Below are positions 1 through 5,418 of a DNA stretch of 6,274 nt, in pieces; the stretch's first letter is position 1, and each line of letters begins with the position of its first letter. The stretch comes from a virus. Its lineage: Duplodnaviria > Heunggongvirae > Uroviricota > Caudoviricetes. A model generated the notes under the pieces. That model saw nothing but the letters and a program-made list of their open reading frames with translations, was not told where the DNA came from and did no database searches. The translations under genes were made by a program, and so were the position numbers. Location: IMG/VR virus record IMGVR_UViG_2695420597_000012; one strand, written 5' to 3'.

Positions 1-269
1 AGCCTTCAGGGAAAAATATCATCAGATGGCTGCTTAAAAAAAGAACAAATGGTAGTGTCCGCTATTGCCAGTACACCTCAGGATAGCGGTCATGTGATGC
101 CGGTTTCCCGGTAACTCAGCACCGGTATCTGAGTCAACGTTTTCTCTACTGGGTCATTTCCGATACGCCCTGCCTGCTGACAGGCTTTCATCACATCTGA
201 AAATATAGCACCCTGACTGATACTGTAGTACCTAAGGTTCCAGAAACTGTGATGTATCCGGCACAGAAA

Positions 270-288
270 AGCCCCTCCGGAGAGGGCT
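270..288 (-). other. Imperfect GC-rich stem-loop (7 bp with one bulge) followed on the minus strand by TTTCT; possible weak terminator or RNA 3' end
   Basis: agcccctccggagagggct. The unit 2 copy at 1901-1920 has one extra G, giving a perfect 8-bp stem. Confidence 0.3.
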
Positions 289-484
289 GGAGAGTGGCGC
301 TATGTGCCATTGCATGATGCCGGGTGCCTCCCGGTGAATTCAGTACCAGCACCTGAATCCGCGATTATCCCATATACCTACTCGCTGATTGCCCCTCCGC
401 ACAGGGGGATTCACCATGCCAGTTTCTTTTAACAAACTCCCCGCAAAACAGACAACTGTCAACCGTCTGAATTGTGAGACATTT

Positions 485-510
485 AAAAAAAAGGCCCGCA
501 AAAGCGAGCC
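485..510 (-). terminator. Rho-independent terminator directly after the tRNA cluster
   Basis: Minus strand reads ggctcgc-tttt-gcgggcc followed by TTTTTTTT (plus-strand A8 at 485-492, stem 493-499/504-510). It lies 15 nt after the CCA end of tRNA-Arg(UCU). Confidence 0.65.
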
Positions 511-524
511 AGGGAAAATAAGTG

Positions 525-601
525 TGGCGCGTTGTACTGGATTCGAACCAGTGACCGATTGCTTAGAAGGCAATTGCTCTGTCCGGCTGAGCTAACAACG
601 C
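525..601 (-). tRNA. argO: tRNA-Arg, anticodon UCU
   Basis: Hand-folded cloverleaf on the minus strand: acceptor GCGTTGT/ACAACGC, D-stem GCTC/GAGC, anticodon stem ATTGC/GCAAT with loop CTTCTAA, T-arm ACTGG-TTCGAAT-CCAGT, discriminator G, encoded CCA. The symbol is assigned from context (lambdoid ileZ-argN-argO cluster), not from a search. Confidence 0.8.
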
Positions 602-614
602 ATGATGCAGATAA

Positions 615-691
615 TGGACCGCCATCGGGGACTTGAACCCCGCGCAACCAGCTTCGAAGGCTGGCGCTCTTTCCTGATGAGCTAATGGCGG
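615..691 (-). tRNA. argN: tRNA-Arg, anticodon UCG (reads CGA/CGG)
   Basis: Acceptor CCGCCAT/ATGGCGG, D-stem GCTC/GAGC, anticodon stem CCAGC/GCTGG with loop CTTCGAA, T-arm CGGGG-TTCAAGT-CCCCG, encoded CCA. Unusual: position 1 is C, the discriminator is U, and A(-1) could pair with U73. Anticodon and symbol should be confirmed. Confidence 0.65.
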
Positions 692-698
692 TATGTGA

Positions 699-774
699 TG
701 GTGGCCCTTGCTGGATTTGAACCAGCGACCTGGCGATTATGAGTCGCTCGCTCTCACCACTGAGCTAAAGGGCC
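699..774 (-). tRNA. ileZ: tRNA-Ile2-like, anticodon CAU (lysidine type, reads AUA); formally could be Met
   Basis: GGCCCTT-TA-GCTC-AGTGGTGA-GAGC-G-AGCGA-CTCATAA-TCGCC-AGGTC-GCTGG-TTCAAAT-CCAGC-AAGGGCC-A-CCA. This closely resembles my recollection of E. coli ileX (tRNA-Ile2, CAU). Confidence 0.8.
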
Positions 775-814
775 GGGAGCCGCATAATAACGACGCGTAA
801 TTAATTCTTCAATA

Positions 815-1845
815 TCATCCGTTCTGGCTGACTAAATCCTGTACTTCCCGAACCGTCTGCTCAAAACGTTCAGTCTCCAGCTCAACGCCAATTGCACGAC
901 GCCCGAGCGCCAGTGCCGCTTTCACTGTCGAACCCAACCCCATGAAAAAATCTGCAATCAGGTCACCCGGACGACTGCTAGCGCTGATTATCTGCTGCAG
1001 CATTTCTGCCGGTTTTTCGCACGGATGTTTCCCGGGATAGAACTGCACCGGTTTATGCGTCCACACATCGGTATACGGCACCTGCACCGTCACGCCAAAA
1101 TACCGCCGCAGATGTTTATATTCACTCAGCAGCTCCGCATACTGCCGGTTCAGTGAGGTATACGTATCCACCAGCTGGTGGTGGAGCTTTTCCAGTTCAC
1201 CACGCCGATGCTTCTCTTCTGCCACCCGGGCAAACAGCGCCTGTAATTTCAGATAATCGCTTTCATTCGGCAACTGCCACTGACCGGCACTGAACCAGTG
1301 CGACACCATGTTTTTCTTTCCTGTGGCATCTGCAATCTGTTTTGCCGTTATCCCCAGGGCAGCTCGCGCATCACGAAAGTAAGAAATCAGCGGGGCCATC
1401 ACATGCTGTTTCAGTGCACTGCCCTTCGCCGCATACCCGGCATCTTTCGGACGATACGGCCCCTGATAATGTTCCGCGAACAGAATGCGCTCTGTGGCGG
1501 GGAAATACGCCCGCAGGCTTTCCTTGTTGCATCCGTTCCAGCGTCCGGACGGCTTCGCCCAGATAATATGGTTCAGCACACTGAAGCGTTCACGCATCAT
1601 GATTTCGATATCAGATGCCAGGCGATGACCACAGAACAGGTAAAGACTTCCGGCAGGTTTCAGCACCCGCCAGAACTGCGCCAGACACTGGTCCAGCCAC
1701 TTCAGGTAATCATCGTCGCCCTTCCACTGGTTATCCCAGCCCTCAGGCTTCACTTTAAAGTACGGCGGGTCCGTGACTATCAGGTCAACAGAATTTTCGG
1801 GTAACGACCGGATAAATTCCAGGCAGTCGGCGTTGATTAACTCAC
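815..1845 (-). pseudogene. DNA amino-methyltransferase (beta class), copy 1, missing the first ~9 codons and start codon
   Basis: Identical to 3793-4823. Motif IV DPPY and motif I DFFMGLGST are retained. The frame stays open upstream to a TAA at 1871-1873 with no in-frame ATG; the only GTG (1751-1753, used by the ORF track) lies after DPPY and has no Shine-Dalgarno. It could still be annotated as a CDS with a non-canonical start. Confidence 0.55.
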
Positions 1846-1900
1846 TAAAACAACAAAGTCCATAAGGAGTTTACTCACATCTGACAAAATCAATATAAAC

Positions 1901-1920
1901 AGCCCCTCCGGAGAGGGGCT
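1901..1920 (-). other. Perfect 8-bp GC-rich stem-loop (agcccctc-cgga-gaggggct)
   Basis: Direct inspection. Minus-strand downstream sequence is U-rich (gtttatattgatttt) but not a clean U-tract. Confidence 0.3.
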
Positions 1921-2116
1921 GGAGAGTGGCGCTATGTGCCATTGCATGGTGCCGGGTGCCTCCCGGTGAATTCAGTACCAGCACCTGAATCCGCGATTAT
2001 CCCATATACCTACTCGCTGATTGCCCCTCCGCACAGGGGGATTCACCATGCCAGTTTCTTTTAACAAACTCCCCGCAAACCAGACAACAGTCAACCGCCT
2101 GAATTGTGAGACATTT

Positions 2117-2142
2117 AAAAAAAAGGCCCACAAAAGCGAGCC
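2117..2142 (-). terminator. Rho-independent terminator after tRNA cluster 2
   Basis: Minus strand ggctcgc-tttt-gtgggcc + T8. One stem base differs from unit 1, giving a G-U pair, so the stem is kept. Confidence 0.6.
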
Positions 2143-2156
2143 AGGGAAAATAAGTG

Positions 2157-2233
2157 TGGCGCGTTGTACTGGATTCGAACCAGTGACCGATTGCTTAGAA
2201 GGCAATTGCTCTGTCCGGCTGAGCTAACAACGC
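2157..2233 (-). tRNA. argO: tRNA-Arg, anticodon UCU (copy 2)
   Basis: Identical to 525-601. Confidence 0.8.
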
Positions 2234-2246
2234 ATGATGCAGATAA

Positions 2247-2323
2247 TGGACCGCCATCGGGGACTTGAACCCCGCGCAACCAGCTTCGAAGGCTGGCGCT
2301 CTTTCCTGATGAGCTAATGGCGG
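2247..2323 (-). tRNA. argN: tRNA-Arg, anticodon UCG (copy 2)
   Basis: Identical to 615-691. Confidence 0.65.
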
Positions 2324-2330
2324 TATGTGA

Positions 2331-2406
2331 TGGTGGCCCTTGCTGGATTTGAACCAGCGACCTGGCGATTATGAGTCGCTCGCTCTCACCACTGAGCTAA
2401 AGGGCC
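2331..2406 (-). tRNA. ileZ: tRNA-Ile2-like, anticodon CAU (copy 2)
   Basis: Identical to 699-774. Confidence 0.8.
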
Positions 2407-2455
2407 GGGAGCAGAATAATAATGGTGCGTAATTAATTCTGCAATCTCATCCGTT

Positions 2456-3477
2456 TCAAACGATTAAATCCTGAACTTCCCTGACTGTCTGCTCAAAACG
2501 TCCGGTCTCCAGTTCAACGCCAATCGCACGACGCCCGAGCGCCAGTGCCGCTTTTACCGTTGAACCTGAGCCCATAAAAAAATCTGCAACCAGGTCTCCC
2601 GGACGACTGCTTGCGCTGATTATCTGCTGCAGCATTTCTGCCGGTTTTTCGCACGGATGTTTCCCGGGATAGAACTGCACCGGTTTATGTGTCCACACAT
2701 CCGTGTACGGCACCTGCGCCGTCACACCAAAATACCGCCGCAGATGCTTATATTCACTCTGCAGCTCCACATACTGCCGGTTCAGTGACGTATACGTATC
2801 CACCAGCTGGTGGTGGGGCTTTTCCAGTTCACCGCGCTGATGTTTCTCTTCTGCCACCCGGGCAAACAGCGACTGTAATTTCAGATAATCGCTTTCGTTC
2901 GGTAGCTGCCACTGACTGGCACTGAACCAGTGCGACACCATGTTTTTCTTTCCTGTGGCATCTGCAATCTGTTTTGCCGTTATCCCCAGGGCCGCGCGCG
3001 CATCACGAAAGTAAGAAATCAGCGGGGCCATCACATGCTGTTTCAGTGCACTGCCCTTCGCCGCATACCCGGCATCTTTCGGACGATACGGCCCCTGATA
3101 ATGTTCCGCGAACAGAATGCGCTCTGTGGCGGGGAAATACGCCCGCAGGCTTTCCTTGTTGCATCCGTTCCAGCGTCCGGACGGCTTCGCCCAGATAATA
3201 TGGTTCAGCACACTGAAGCGTTCACGCATCATGATTTCGATATCAGATGCCAGGCGATGACCACAGAACAGGTAAAGACTTCCGGCAGGTTTCAGCACCC
3301 GCCAGAACTGCGCCAGACACTGGTCCAGCCACTTCAGGTAATCATCGTCGCCCTTCCACTGGTTATCCCAGCCCTCAGGCTTCACTTTAAAGTACGGCGG
3401 GTCCGTGACTATCAGGTCAACAGAATTTTCGGGTAACGACCGGATAAATTCCAGGCAGTCGGCGTTGATTAACTCAC
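2456..3477 (-). pseudogene. DNA amino-methyltransferase, diverged paralog (copy 2), N-terminally truncated at the junction with tRNA cluster 3
   Basis: About 10 amino-acid differences from copies 1 and 3, a C-terminus 3 codons shorter (LIV* versus LVSQNG*), and many silent nucleotide changes. DPPY is retained; motif I is DFFMGSGST. The frame runs upstream into tRNA-derived sequence with no in-frame ATG. Confidence 0.55.
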
Positions 3478-3502
3478 AAAAGCGAGCCAGGGAAAATAAG
3501 TG

Positions 3503-3579
3503 TGGCGCGTTGTACTGGATTCGAACCAGTGACCGATTGCTTAGAAGGCAATTGCTCTGTCCGGCTGAGCTAACAACGC
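3503..3579 (-). tRNA. argO: tRNA-Arg, anticodon UCU (copy 3)
   Basis: Identical to 525-601. Confidence 0.8.
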
Positions 3580-3592
3580 ATGATGCAGATAA

Positions 3593-3669
3593 TGGACCGC
3601 CATCGGGGACTTGAACCCCGCGCAGCCAGCTTCGAAGGCTGGCGCTCTTTCCTGATGAGCTAATGGCGG
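3593..3669 (-). tRNA. argN: tRNA-Arg, anticodon UCG (copy 3, variable-loop variant)
   Basis: Same as 615-691 except plus-strand A to G at 3625 (variable loop TTGCG to CTGCG in the tRNA). Confidence 0.65.
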
Positions 3670-3676
3670 TATGTGA

Positions 3677-3752
3677 TGGTGGCCCTTGCTGGATTTGAAC
3701 CAGCGACCTGGCGATTATGAGTCGCTCGCTCTCACCACTGAGCTAAAGGGCC
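3677..3752 (-). tRNA. ileZ: tRNA-Ile2-like, anticodon CAU (copy 3)
   Basis: Identical to 699-774. Confidence 0.8.
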
Positions 3753-3792
3753 GGGAGCCGCATAATAACGACGCGTAATTAATTCTTCAATA

Positions 3793-4851
3793 TCATCCGT
3801 TCTGGCTGACTAAATCCTGTACTTCCCGAACCGTCTGCTCAAAACGTTCAGTCTCCAGCTCAACGCCAATTGCACGACGCCCGAGCGCCAGTGCCGCTTT
3901 CACTGTCGAACCCAACCCCATGAAAAAATCTGCAATCAGGTCACCCGGACGACTGCTAGCGCTGATTATCTGCTGCAGCATTTCTGCCGGTTTTTCGCAC
4001 GGATGTTTCCCGGGATAGAACTGCACCGGTTTATGCGTCCACACATCGGTATACGGCACCTGCACCGTCACGCCAAAATACCGCCGCAGATGTTTATATT
4101 CACTCAGCAGCTCCGCATACTGCCGGTTCAGTGAGGTATACGTATCCACCAGCTGGTGGTGGAGCTTTTCCAGTTCACCACGCCGATGCTTCTCTTCTGC
4201 CACCCGGGCAAACAGCGCCTGTAATTTCAGATAATCGCTTTCATTCGGCAACTGCCACTGACCGGCACTGAACCAGTGCGACACCATGTTTTTCTTTCCT
4301 GTGGCATCTGCAATCTGTTTTGCCGTTATCCCCAGGGCAGCTCGCGCATCACGAAAGTAAGAAATCAGCGGGGCCATCACATGCTGTTTCAGTGCACTGC
4401 CCTTCGCCGCATACCCGGCATCTTTCGGACGATACGGCCCCTGATAATGTTCCGCGAACAGAATGCGCTCTGTGGCGGGGAAATACGCCCGCAGGCTTTC
4501 CTTGTTGCATCCGTTCCAGCGTCCGGACGGCTTCGCCCAGATAATATGGTTCAGCACACTGAAGCGTTCACGCATCATGATTTCGATATCAGATGCCAGG
4601 CGATGACCACAGAACAGGTAAAGACTTCCGGCAGGTTTCAGCACCCGCCAGAACTGCGCCAGACACTGGTCCAGCCACTTCAGGTAATCATCGTCGCCCT
4701 TCCACTGGTTATCCCAGCCCTCAGGCTTCACTTTAAAGTACGGCGGGTCCGTGACTATCAGGTCAACAGAATTTTCGGGTAACGACCGGATAAATTCCAG
4801 GCAGTCGGCGTTGATTAACTCACAACTGGATATTTTTACAGTATTAAGCAT
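3793..4851 (-). CDS. DNA N6-adenine or N4-cytosine methyltransferase (beta-class, likely orphan, phage type), full length 352 aa
   Basis: ATG at 4849-4851 with an in-frame TGA two codons upstream. DPPY (motif IV) lies near the N-terminus and FxGxG (DFFMGLGST, motif I) near the C-terminus, the IV-then-I order of beta-class amino-MTases. No adjacent restriction endonuclease ORF. The Shine-Dalgarno is weak. Confidence 0.85.
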   Translation of the reverse strand: MLNTVKISSCELINADCLEFIRSLPENSVDLIVTDPPYFKVKPEGWDNQWKGDDDYLKWLDQCLAQFWRVLKPAGSLYLFCGHRLASDIEIMMRERFSVLNHIIWAKPSGRWNGCNKESLRAYFPATERILFAEHYQGPYRPKDAGYAAKGSALKQHVMAPLISYFRDARAALGITAKQIADATGKKNMVSHWFSAGQWQLPNESDYLKLQALFARVAEEKHRRGELEKLHHQLVDTYTSLNRQYAELLSEYKHLRRYFGVTVQVPYTDVWTHKPVQFYPGKHPCEKPAEMLQQIISASSRPGDLIADFFMGLGSTVKAALALGRRAIGVELETERFEQTVREVQDLVSQNG

Positions 4852-4944
4852 GGATCATTAAGCCTGTCTCTGATAGGCTCATTCTGCTTTTGCGCAAAGC
4901 AGTGGGCCTGAGGTTTGCTTGTGAACCCAACGCATGAGCAGATG

Positions 4945-4973
4945 GCTGGTGGGTGCCCCTAACACCCACCAGC
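4945..4973 (-). other. Perfect 11-bp stem-loop (gctggtgggtg-cccctaa-cacccaccagc), not followed by a U-tract on either strand
   Basis: Direct inspection. It lies between the terminator at 4986-5015 and the methyltransferase start. Confidence 0.5.
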
Positions 4974-4985
4974 CGCCCATTTACC

Positions 4986-5015
4986 ACAAATAAAAAAGCC
5001 TTCACTGCGGAAGGC
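4986..5015 (-). terminator. Rho-independent terminator after the 65-aa ORF
   Basis: Minus strand gccttccgcagtgaaggc (6-bp stem) followed by TTTTTTATTT. The ORF stop codon (5002-5004) lies inside the stem. Confidence 0.55.
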
Positions 5016-5199
5016 GTCTGTAACAACCGAACTGATAGTCTGCCAGACCCGCCATAACCAGCTGGGTCAGTATTAACTGGCAGCGTTCGCGTGAAAGGTA
5101 AGTATTCTGCGCTATCTCCCCGACTGTCGCCGGTTCGGTAACGCTTAATTCATTAAACACCACTCTGGCGGTTTCTGTCATATCCTGCTGTTTTAGCAT
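5002..5199 (-). CDS. Small 65-aa protein, possibly a winged-helix DNA-binding protein (PapI/FaeA-like pattern)
   Basis: ATG at 5197-5199 preceded by AAGGA 6 nt upstream (minus strand ggaaaaggaaaagacATG), with its own terminator. The segment TVGEIAQNTYLSRERCQLILTQLVMAGL resembles small winged-helix regulators. The fold assignment is by eye only. Confidence 0.4.
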   Translation of the reverse strand: MLKQQDMTETARVVFNELSVTEPATVGEIAQNTYLSRERCQLILTQLVMAGLADYQFGCYRRLPQ

Positions 5200-5317
5200 G
5201 TCTTTTCCTTTTCCGGTTAACGTGACACACCAATAACTCTTGTCGAAAAAGCCAGCAAGCTGAAAGACAGGTATTCACCGCCACCAGCGCGTTTACTGTA
5301 CTGACGCGATTTCAGTC

Positions 5318-5341
5318 ATAAAAAACCCGCCAGGCGGCGGG
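5318..5341 (-). terminator. Strong rho-independent terminator ~85 nt downstream of Q (tR'-like)
   Basis: Minus strand cccgcc-gcct-ggcggg (6 GC pairs) followed by TTTTTTAT. Confidence 0.6.
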
Positions 5342-5390
5342 GTGTAAAAAATCTTCTAACGTCAGGCATAAAACGCCCATCGTTAGAGCA

Positions 5391-5418
5391 AATTTACCAC
5401 AGATTCGGGAAAAATCAA
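5391..5418 (-). promoter_or_regulatory. Candidate sigma70 late promoter (PR'-like) just after the Q stop
   Basis: Minus strand TTGATT (5418-5413) - 16 nt - TAAATT (5396-5391). Hexamer match only; the qut site is not identifiable by eye. Confidence 0.25.

Follow-up and report, generated by a model that had tools for sequence, protein, structure and literature searches.

What is the function of a 65-residue protein whose gene is placed between the antiterminator gene Q and a DNA methyltransferase gene of a tailed phage? The question is raised by a 6,274-nt stretch of Caudoviricetes DNA (IMG/VR record IMGVR_UViG_2695420597_000012), here analysed as a whole and called the window (Table 1). The original prediction held that the open reading frame (ORF) is a real gene with a good AAGGA Shine-Dalgarno sequence and an end inside a terminator hairpin, that its central segment looks like a winged helix of the PapI/FaeA type, and that a small regulator at this position is unexpected.

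Table 1 Coordinates of the features of the window and of leader copies found at other loci
Feature	Position	Strand	Details
Antiterminator Q gene, 273 aa	5424..6245	-	QuuQ-like, DnaJ-type CxxCxGxG repeats; Pfam Antiterm (E 5e-51), DnaJ_CXXCXGXG (E 8e-6)
PR'-like late promoter	5376..5418	-	-35 TTGATT (5418-5413), extended -10 TGgTAAATT (5399-5391), AACGATGGG (5384-5376)
tR'-like intrinsic terminator	5319..5341 (terminator scan 5341..5326)	-	CCCGCCGCCTGGCGGG followed by T6
Conserved upstream element	5222..5259	-	CTTGCTG-N13-(C/A)AGAGTTAY-TGTRTGTCAC; candidate promoter or operator
Shine-Dalgarno sequence AAGGA	5206..5210	-	6 nt ahead of the ATG (5199-5197)
65-aa ORF	5002..5199	-	Stand-alone winged-helix protein of phrog_331; ORF list, family, fold and codon data
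Hairpin across the stop codon with T-run	4988..5015	-	Terminator scan, hairpin folding
Structured leader RNA	4849..5002	-	5' hairpin P1/P2 and long irregular stem P3-P5; covariation
Beta-class N6-adenine DNA methyltransferase gene, 352 aa	3793..4851	-	M.EcoGII/M.EcoGI family; Pfam N6_N4_Mtase (E 8e-42)
Leader copies at other loci	L039 1355-1503; L043 1352-1503; L044 1353-1503; L040 1361-1505; L041 1301-1453; L045 1352-1503

A genuine gene of a widespread phage family

The ORF listing gives a single ORF at this position, with an ATG start (MLKQQDMTETARVVFNELSVTEPATVGEIAQNTYLSRERCQLILTQLVMAGLADYQFGCYRRLPQ), and Pfam searches identify its neighbours as Q and an N6_N4 methyltransferase gene, bearing out the arrangement originally described. 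The AAGGA motif is likewise present 6 nt ahead of the start codon, and a purine-rich (A/G)GG motif is retained at this place in most relatives. Calculated for 34 distinct coding sequences out of 37 loci, the median dN/dS is 0.28 and pairwise differences at codon positions 1, 2 and 3 amount to 0.33, 0.24 and 0.54. The reading frame is intact in 36 of the 37 loci. The stretch RCQLILTQL is invariant and is written with many synonymous codons across loci; it served as the search pattern for the genome loci, so its invariance among them is partly by construction, and a pattern-free HMMER search gives the same core (C-x-L-[ILV]-LTQ...AG). Constraint on RNA or DNA instead of protein as the cause of the conservation is excluded by the codon-position pattern and by the synonymous changes inside invariant residues. 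Residues 1-64 match the profile of phrog_331 (E 1.4e-37, 128.7 bits), making the protein a member of this family, and 334 homologues were found in a set of 5.8 billion proteins. The ORF is almost certainly a genuine protein-coding gene, as had been claimed. At one locus (L031), the ORF carries a premature stop (22 aa) while leader and methyltransferase are intact.

A search of a library of 50%-identity cluster representatives returned 61 representatives at E <= 0.001, essentially all of them from Enterobacterales. The protein of the window is 100% identical to L23 of phiP27 (P27p23) and to RefSeq WP_000917767.1, and the same gene is annotated in SfV (orf47), mEp460 (gp52) and many Stx2 phages. 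N15 gp51 (E 6e-28) and PY54 ORF59 (E 2e-26) are also phrog_331 members (hhalign probability 80%). The orf-64 of lambda, which has the same size and the same place after PR', was considered as a relative and rejected (hhalign probability 0.1%). A 581-bp segment around the ORF is present in 2470 of 5426 complete E. coli genomes, with at least 80% of the segment in 1754; roughly one third to one half of complete E. coli genomes thus have the gene. The expectation that such a gene would be out of place does not hold, given these annotations and this frequency. The region between Q and the lysis genes is variable and accessory genes are usual there, so the ORF is not unusual; its annotation goes back to the genome records of phiP27 and SfV, and taken as an ORF call alone it is ordinary. 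The family is labelled "unknown function" in PHROGs and "hypothetical" or "TrmB family" in RefSeq, while the PGAP name of the product is "TrmB family transcriptional regulator". A literature search with the accession of the protein, the phage ORF names and M.EcoGI/M.EcoGII found no functional study of the ORF protein.

Two records of unexpected origin carry the enterobacterial genes described in the next section, namely a "Bacillus sp." MAG contig (L009, 2.5 kb, 98% identical protein) and "Chryseobacterium sp. 18061" (L019, a 420-kb contig). Contamination or mislabelled source records are the likely explanation. One member of the family (P0146) contains an internal duplication.

A fixed cassette with an M.EcoGII-type methyltransferase

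Homologues are plentiful in other prophages and generally keep the methyltransferase as their neighbour. The small ORF, the hairpin spanning its stop codon, a leader RNA of about 150 nt and an M.EcoGII-family methyltransferase gene follow each other in this order and constitute a cassette, all parts of which are present in 28 of 30 genome loci and in all seven phage loci examined. The genome loci represent Escherichia, Salmonella, Klebsiella, Citrobacter, Kluyvera, Buttiauxella, Mangrovibacter, Mixta, Proteus, Providencia and Plesiomonas, and the phage loci are those of phiP27, SfV, mEp460, Hafnia yong2, Citrobacter phiNP, 1720a-02 and the E. coli 203740 prophage, in which Q is annotated as "antitermination protein". 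Across the same 28 genome and seven phage loci, the methyltransferase ATG is located 340-356 nt past the ATG of the ORF, and the cassette is preceded by varying genes (Q of different types, a GIY-YIG nuclease, a 138-aa protein). The two exceptions are a locus at a contig end (L025) and one in which ORF and leader are kept and the methyltransferase is lost (L023). In N15 and PY54, the family members gp51 and ORF59 lie just upstream of the late promoter, terminator, leader and methyltransferase, so that ORF and methyltransferase are associated in a second arrangement as well. Eeyore, Serratia OS31, VHML and phiO18P have no phrog_331 member within 1.5 kb of the methyltransferase. Leader and methyltransferase thus also occur without the ORF, which makes the ORF protein a frequent but dispensable companion and the leader independent of it.

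The methyltransferase of the window (pI 8.4) is 95% identical to the enzyme of phage 1720a-02, which has been described as "very similar" to M.EcoGII. Constitutive expression of M.EcoGII is deleterious, its gene is silent in lysogens, and the enzyme is active once cloned and purified alone (PMC5778455). M.EcoGII is in wide use as a non-specific enzyme for writing m6A, and relatives are encoded upstream of the stx genes in many Shiga-toxin phages.

Position behind a late promoter and terminator

The ORF shares its strand with Q and the lysis genes and is found downstream of a PR'-like promoter and a tR'-like terminator. The promoter is located just past the Q stop codon, with a 16-nt spacer between TTGATT and TGgTAAATT, and in an alignment GGTAAATTTG and AACGATGGG are identical in lambda. 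Based on established knowledge of lambda, we take GGTAAATTTG to be the -10 region of PR' and AACGATGGG to be its sigma70-dependent pause-inducing element. The promoter remained uncalled in a consensus promoter scan (8 of 12 matches, below the scan threshold). A GC hairpin with a T-run precedes the cassette in all related loci, and in related prophages holin and endolysin genes come after the methyltransferase and tRNA genes. The ORF is thus the first cistron after PR' and tR' and a late gene, transcribed by RNA polymerase that Q carries past tR'. Transcription from PR' to tR' (5319-5384, minus strand) would yield an RNA of about 65 nt that corresponds to lambda 6S RNA; its equivalent in Stx phages, StxS, works as an sRNA.

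Between tR' and the ribosome-binding site of the ORF, a 38-nt element (Table 1) is nearly invariant in 34 loci. Its 3' half has a counterpart (CCAGTTATCTAATCTAC) in Eeyore, which is without the ORF. No RNA helix explains the element. A sigma70 promoter for the ORF with a consistent -35/-10 across loci could not be fitted, the element itself fitting none, which leaves an independent promoter of the ORF hypothetical.

A stop-spanning hairpin and a structured leader RNA

The ORF does end inside a terminator-like hairpin. The terminator scan places GCCTTCCGCAGTGAAGGC at 5015..4998, followed by TTTTTTATTT (hairpin dG -7.5 kcal/mol, T6), with the TGA stop codon (5004-5002) at the boundary between loop and 3' arm. 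Terminator-like sites in the region number 4, compared with 1.3 expected from shuffles. Among Enterobacteriaceae relatives the hairpin is kept with different stem sequences, and it is missing in Proteus and Providencia. A strong T-run follows it only in the window-type clade, where the hairpin is best read as an intrinsic terminator. Eeyore has a similar hairpin before its leader, with no ORF.

The spacer between ORF and methyltransferase measures 134-153 nt and is conserved above the level of the central part of the ORF. No Shine-Dalgarno sequence precedes the methyltransferase ATG. The 18 nt right before it (positions -1 to -18) form the 3' strand of P3-P5, and the start region is paired in stem P3, so that the start is sequestered in an RNA stem beside a hairpin, as in Com-type control. 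The leader of the window has a minimum free energy of -72.3 kcal/mol (z = -3.96) with the AUG paired. Explicit pair counting on the RNAalifold fold finds 95.8% of leader cells paired, compared with 27-48% for slid partners, and 40 compensatory cells, compared with 2-16 in slid controls; none of 500 shuffles reaches the observed value. Compensatory changes affect 21 of 30 leader pairs in a 30-sequence alignment that includes distant phages, a count that leans towards structure since this alignment was fitted to the model.

The leader covariance model (R1) matches directly 5' of the methyltransferase ATG in N15, PY54, phiKO2, Serratia OS31, Vibrio VHML, Eeyore and PhiR46_1 and has no match in Aeromonas phiO18P. 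The Eeyore leader is near-identical (150 bits). The unpaired leader motifs A[A/G]UGGGCG, GCCCA and AGCCUAUCA are equally conserved in phages without the ORF protein. No family of Rfam 15 matches the leader, the only hit being a sub-threshold one to P26 on the opposite strand (E 0.09). Conserved in lambdoid prophages as well as in N15-like, Serratia and Vibrio phages, the leader of M.EcoGII-family methyltransferases represents a candidate new cis-regulatory RNA family, and this covariation-supported RNA is the most useful by-product of the analysis.

An invariant UGUGAAAAUGGGCG-like motif is found at the 5' end of all leaders (4975-4990 of the window, minus strand). It resembles an extended -10 (TGnGAAAAT) together with a PR' pause element (AACGAUGGGCG) and, on account of this likeness, may act as another promoter or as a site of sigma70-dependent pausing.

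Fold and conservation of the small protein

The AlphaFold2 model of the ORF protein is a canonical winged helix (pLDDT 92.4) with the topology H1-b1-H2-H3-b2-wing-b3. Structural neighbours of the model include Lrs14-like, BlaI-like, ArsR, MarR and IclR regulators, stand-alone Z-alpha domains, RNA-binding winged helices of SelB, the activation domain of T4 MotA and the N-terminal winged-helix domains of small-molecule O-methyltransferases. The fold anticipated in the original prediction is thereby confirmed; its assignment to the PapI/FaeA type is not. PapI/FaeA (PF04703) is not among the closest structural neighbours and is absent among the seven Pfam families listed at E <= 10, a null result that means no match better than about 0.1, above which HMMER filters drop most matches. 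All Pfam matches obtained (TrmB, MarR_2, HTH_24, DprA_WH) are below their gathering thresholds. TrmB (PF01978) was rejected as a family assignment (E 0.0026, 18 bits against a gathering threshold of 25.6 bits; 65 aa without a second domain), and a PDB sequence search with the protein yielded nothing significant.

Conservation is concentrated in two blocks, the disordered N-terminal tail (MLKQQDMTE) and helix 3 with the following turn (RCQLILTQLxMAGL), with free variation in helices 1 and 2 and in the wing. A comparison of SfV and mEp460 illustrates this pattern: leader and methyltransferase are near-identical, and the small proteins are 53% identical, sharing just the N-terminal tail and helix 3. 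The only cysteines are C40 and C59, of which C40 alone is conserved. The family is mostly acidic (median pI 5.5, 23 of 33 members net negative), with net charges of -3 to -5 in Proteus-type members and two Glu on helix 3 of N15-type members. Natural mosaics join two subtypes of the protein at helix 3. Among the natural variants of the ORF (P0215-P0220, P0146, L031), the mosaics combine helices 1-2 of subtype A with the wing of subtype B, joined at the conserved helix-3 codons.

Possible roles of the small protein

The ORF protein is probably a modulator, of some kind, dedicated to the methyltransferase. As a member of a fixed cassette that is read late, once Q-modified polymerase passes tR', it is probably a dedicated companion of the next gene. 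The product of that gene, an M.EcoGII-type non-specific adenine methyltransferase, shields phage DNA from restriction and harms the host, and we hypothesize that the winged-helix protein tunes this enzyme post-transcriptionally. The mostly acidic protein could bind the basic methyltransferase, or the complex of the enzyme with nucleic acid, through its invariant N-terminal tail and helix 3, and the enzyme would thereby be restrained or directed. Tuning after transcription via direct contact with the enzyme is our best explanation overall, offered tentatively, and protein-protein contact between the two as such must be regarded as doubtful. Any physical contact, and the direction of its effect, we infer; acidity and conservation pattern slightly favour protein-protein contact over a plain nucleic-acid binder, without being decisive.

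What speaks for a dedicated modulator is the linkage to the methyltransferase from Escherichia to Proteus and Plesiomonas at a fixed distance while the upstream gene varies, together with the SfV/mEp460 pair, which share leader and enzyme and differ in the small protein outside the N-terminal tail and helix 3. The recurrence in N15 and PY54, the acidic family next to a basic enzyme, and the precedents of PNB-2 and of the deleterious M.EcoGII point the same way. What speaks against it is the activity of M.EcoGII alone, meaning that no partner is needed for catalysis, the lack of homology of PNB-2 and its enzyme to the proteins of the window, and the presence of leader and methyltransferase without a family member nearby in Eeyore, Serratia OS31 and VHML. 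It should also be noted that the tight linkage could reflect shared transfer as one module instead of shared function.

The structured leader raises the question of whether the protein could act on RNA. Similar to Com of phage Mu, which acts on mom, the winged helix would then bind the leader and open the helix over the methyltransferase start, so that the enzyme is made only after the small protein has accumulated late. The small gene occupies the position of com, positions -1 to -18 and, in the window, also the AUG are paired within the leader, and no Shine-Dalgarno sequence is present. In Mu-like prophages, the non-specific adenine methyltransferases Hin1523 and Hia5 take the place of mom behind com homologues, and putative Com sites are located at the 5' ends of their genes (PMC3299994). 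Some winged helices bind RNA hairpins, structures of SelB winged helices with SECIS being among the neighbours of the model, and the invariant residues R39, Q41, T45 and Q46 on helix 3 are polar. However, the unpaired leader motifs are just as conserved in phages without the ORF protein and the Eeyore leader is near-identical in the absence of an ORF. Most members, moreover, are acidic, helix 3 itself being acidic in the N15 type, and a winged helix with two cysteines differs from the zinc-finger fold of Com. We consider such a translational activator unlikely.

Alternatively, the protein could be a DNA-binding transcription factor, repressing or activating at an operator within the cassette (the 5259-5222 element or the TGTGAAAAT-like motif at the 5' end of the leader) and setting its own transcription, that of the methyltransferase or both, like a C protein. 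Nearly all top structural neighbours are regulators of the MarR, ArsR, IclR, BlaI or Lrs14 type, the PGAP name points the same way, the 38-nt element upstream of the ORF is nearly invariant, and R62 and G58 in the wing are conserved. This role is nevertheless improbable: the family is acidic or neutral, 65 residues leave no dimerisation element, every Pfam match stays below its gathering threshold, and a search of the cassette found no palindromic or repeated operator and no consistent promoter, while Eeyore has the related element CCAGTTATCTAATCTAC without the ORF. The term regulator in the original prediction was a guess from the fold, and the acidity of most family members together with the missing operator does not support it.

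A moron-type accessory gene with a function unrelated to the methyltransferase, directed at host RNA polymerase, another phage or a host pathway and linked by a shared mobile module after tR', is also unlikely. In its favour, the ORF has its own ribosome-binding site and, in the window clade, its own terminator, methyltransferase and leader work without the ORF protein in some phages, the sigma70-binding activation domain of T4 MotA is among the neighbours, and the variation in helices 1 and 2 and in the wing would suit a partner that itself changes. Against it, the linkage persists down to 41% protein identity, across genera and behind varied upstream genes, is re-created in N15-like phages, and is broken to leave ORF and leader without the methyltransferase only once (L023, 1 of 30), while no promoter of its own can be demonstrated.

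Returning to the methyltransferase modulator, a broader version would have phrog_331 proteins, the undescribed leader RNA and M.EcoGII-type enzymes form a three-part control module in lambdoid and N15-like phages of Enterobacterales. The winged helix would be a non-homologous replacement of Com that acts on the leader RNA or on the enzyme and times a host-toxic modification. We regard this generalization as unlikely.

Comparison with known modification systems

The phrog_331 genes of phiP27 (L23), SfV (orf47), mEp460 (gp52), N15 (gp51) and PY54 (ORF59) are related to the ORF by direct membership and share its place upstream of the methyltransferase, with no difference. As an analogy, Mu Com/mom, including com-hin1523/hia5, is the closest match in logic. 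Like the ORF, com encodes about 62-65 aa and, in a late operon, directly precedes an adenine-modification gene that serves to evade restriction and is toxic to the host; in both systems an RNA helix covers the start of the modification gene. Com is an RNA-binding protein of the Cys4 zinc-finger type, and com overlaps mom, whereas the ORF encodes a predicted winged helix with two cysteines at a distance of 150 nt from the methyltransferase; the ORF protein is therefore not a member of the Com family. In addition, the leader is conserved also where the ORF protein is absent.

A second analogy is offered by PNB-2, a predicted winged-helix protein whose gene is directly upstream of, and co-transcribed with, a methyltransferase gene of Stx2a phage PA8. 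Work of the Koudelka laboratory showed that PNB-2 co-purifies 1:1 with its methyltransferase, sets its substrate and directs the holoenzyme to 16S rRNA (PMC10810198). Identity of the ORF protein with PNB-2 (EcoPA8orf6775P) was rejected, as PNB-2 has 143 aa and is encoded in the early-left region near attL (BLASTP E 0.14 to the ORF). The enzymes are also unrelated, M.EcoPA8orf6770P being a 208-aa MT-A70 enzyme and the methyltransferase of the window a 352-aa beta-class enzyme (BLASTP E 0.03). PNB-2 is not homologous and is kept as an analogy only.

Three further types of small or DNA-binding proteins resemble the ORF protein in part. PapI/FaeA proteins are small stand-alone winged helices of similar size; PapI acts together with Lrp on GATC sites in fimbrial operons, whereas the ORF belongs to a prophage late region and has no Dam/Lrp-controlled fimbrial operon next to it. 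TrmB has an N-terminal winged-helix domain resembling the ORF protein, which is without the sugar-binding domain. C proteins are likewise encoded by small genes with a DNA-binding fold that precede a modification-related gene, but they are Xre-type HTH dimers with C-boxes that control a restriction gene, whereas the methyltransferase next to the ORF is an orphan and no operator was found.

Small partners of phage modification enzymes are a recurring theme, exemplified by Mu Com/Mom and PA8 PNB-2, which the present cassette extends. A leader that hides the start codon and a usual small winged-helix companion are concrete, testable parts for the control of a host-toxic enzyme.

Tandem methyltransferase-tRNA repeats in the window

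Three tandem copies of a unit consisting of the methyltransferase and tRNA-Ile(CAT)/Arg(TCG)/Arg(TCT) genes are found at positions 267-4825 of the window. Segment 499-1845 agrees with 3477-4823 at 99.9% identity, and either of them with 2129-3479 at 96%. The first ~26 nt, ATG included, are missing from copies 2 and 3, as is the leader. Among the top matches in complete E. coli genomes the three-copy layout does not occur, CB7453 having one partial and one full copy. The repeat could reflect true amplification, recombination of prophages with each other or an artefact of assembly. Behind the tRNA sets of copies 2 and 3, at positions 259-448 and 1891-2080 (minus strand), full-length matches to the Rfam sRNA STnc100 were identified with scores of 124 and 132 bits (gathering score 47).
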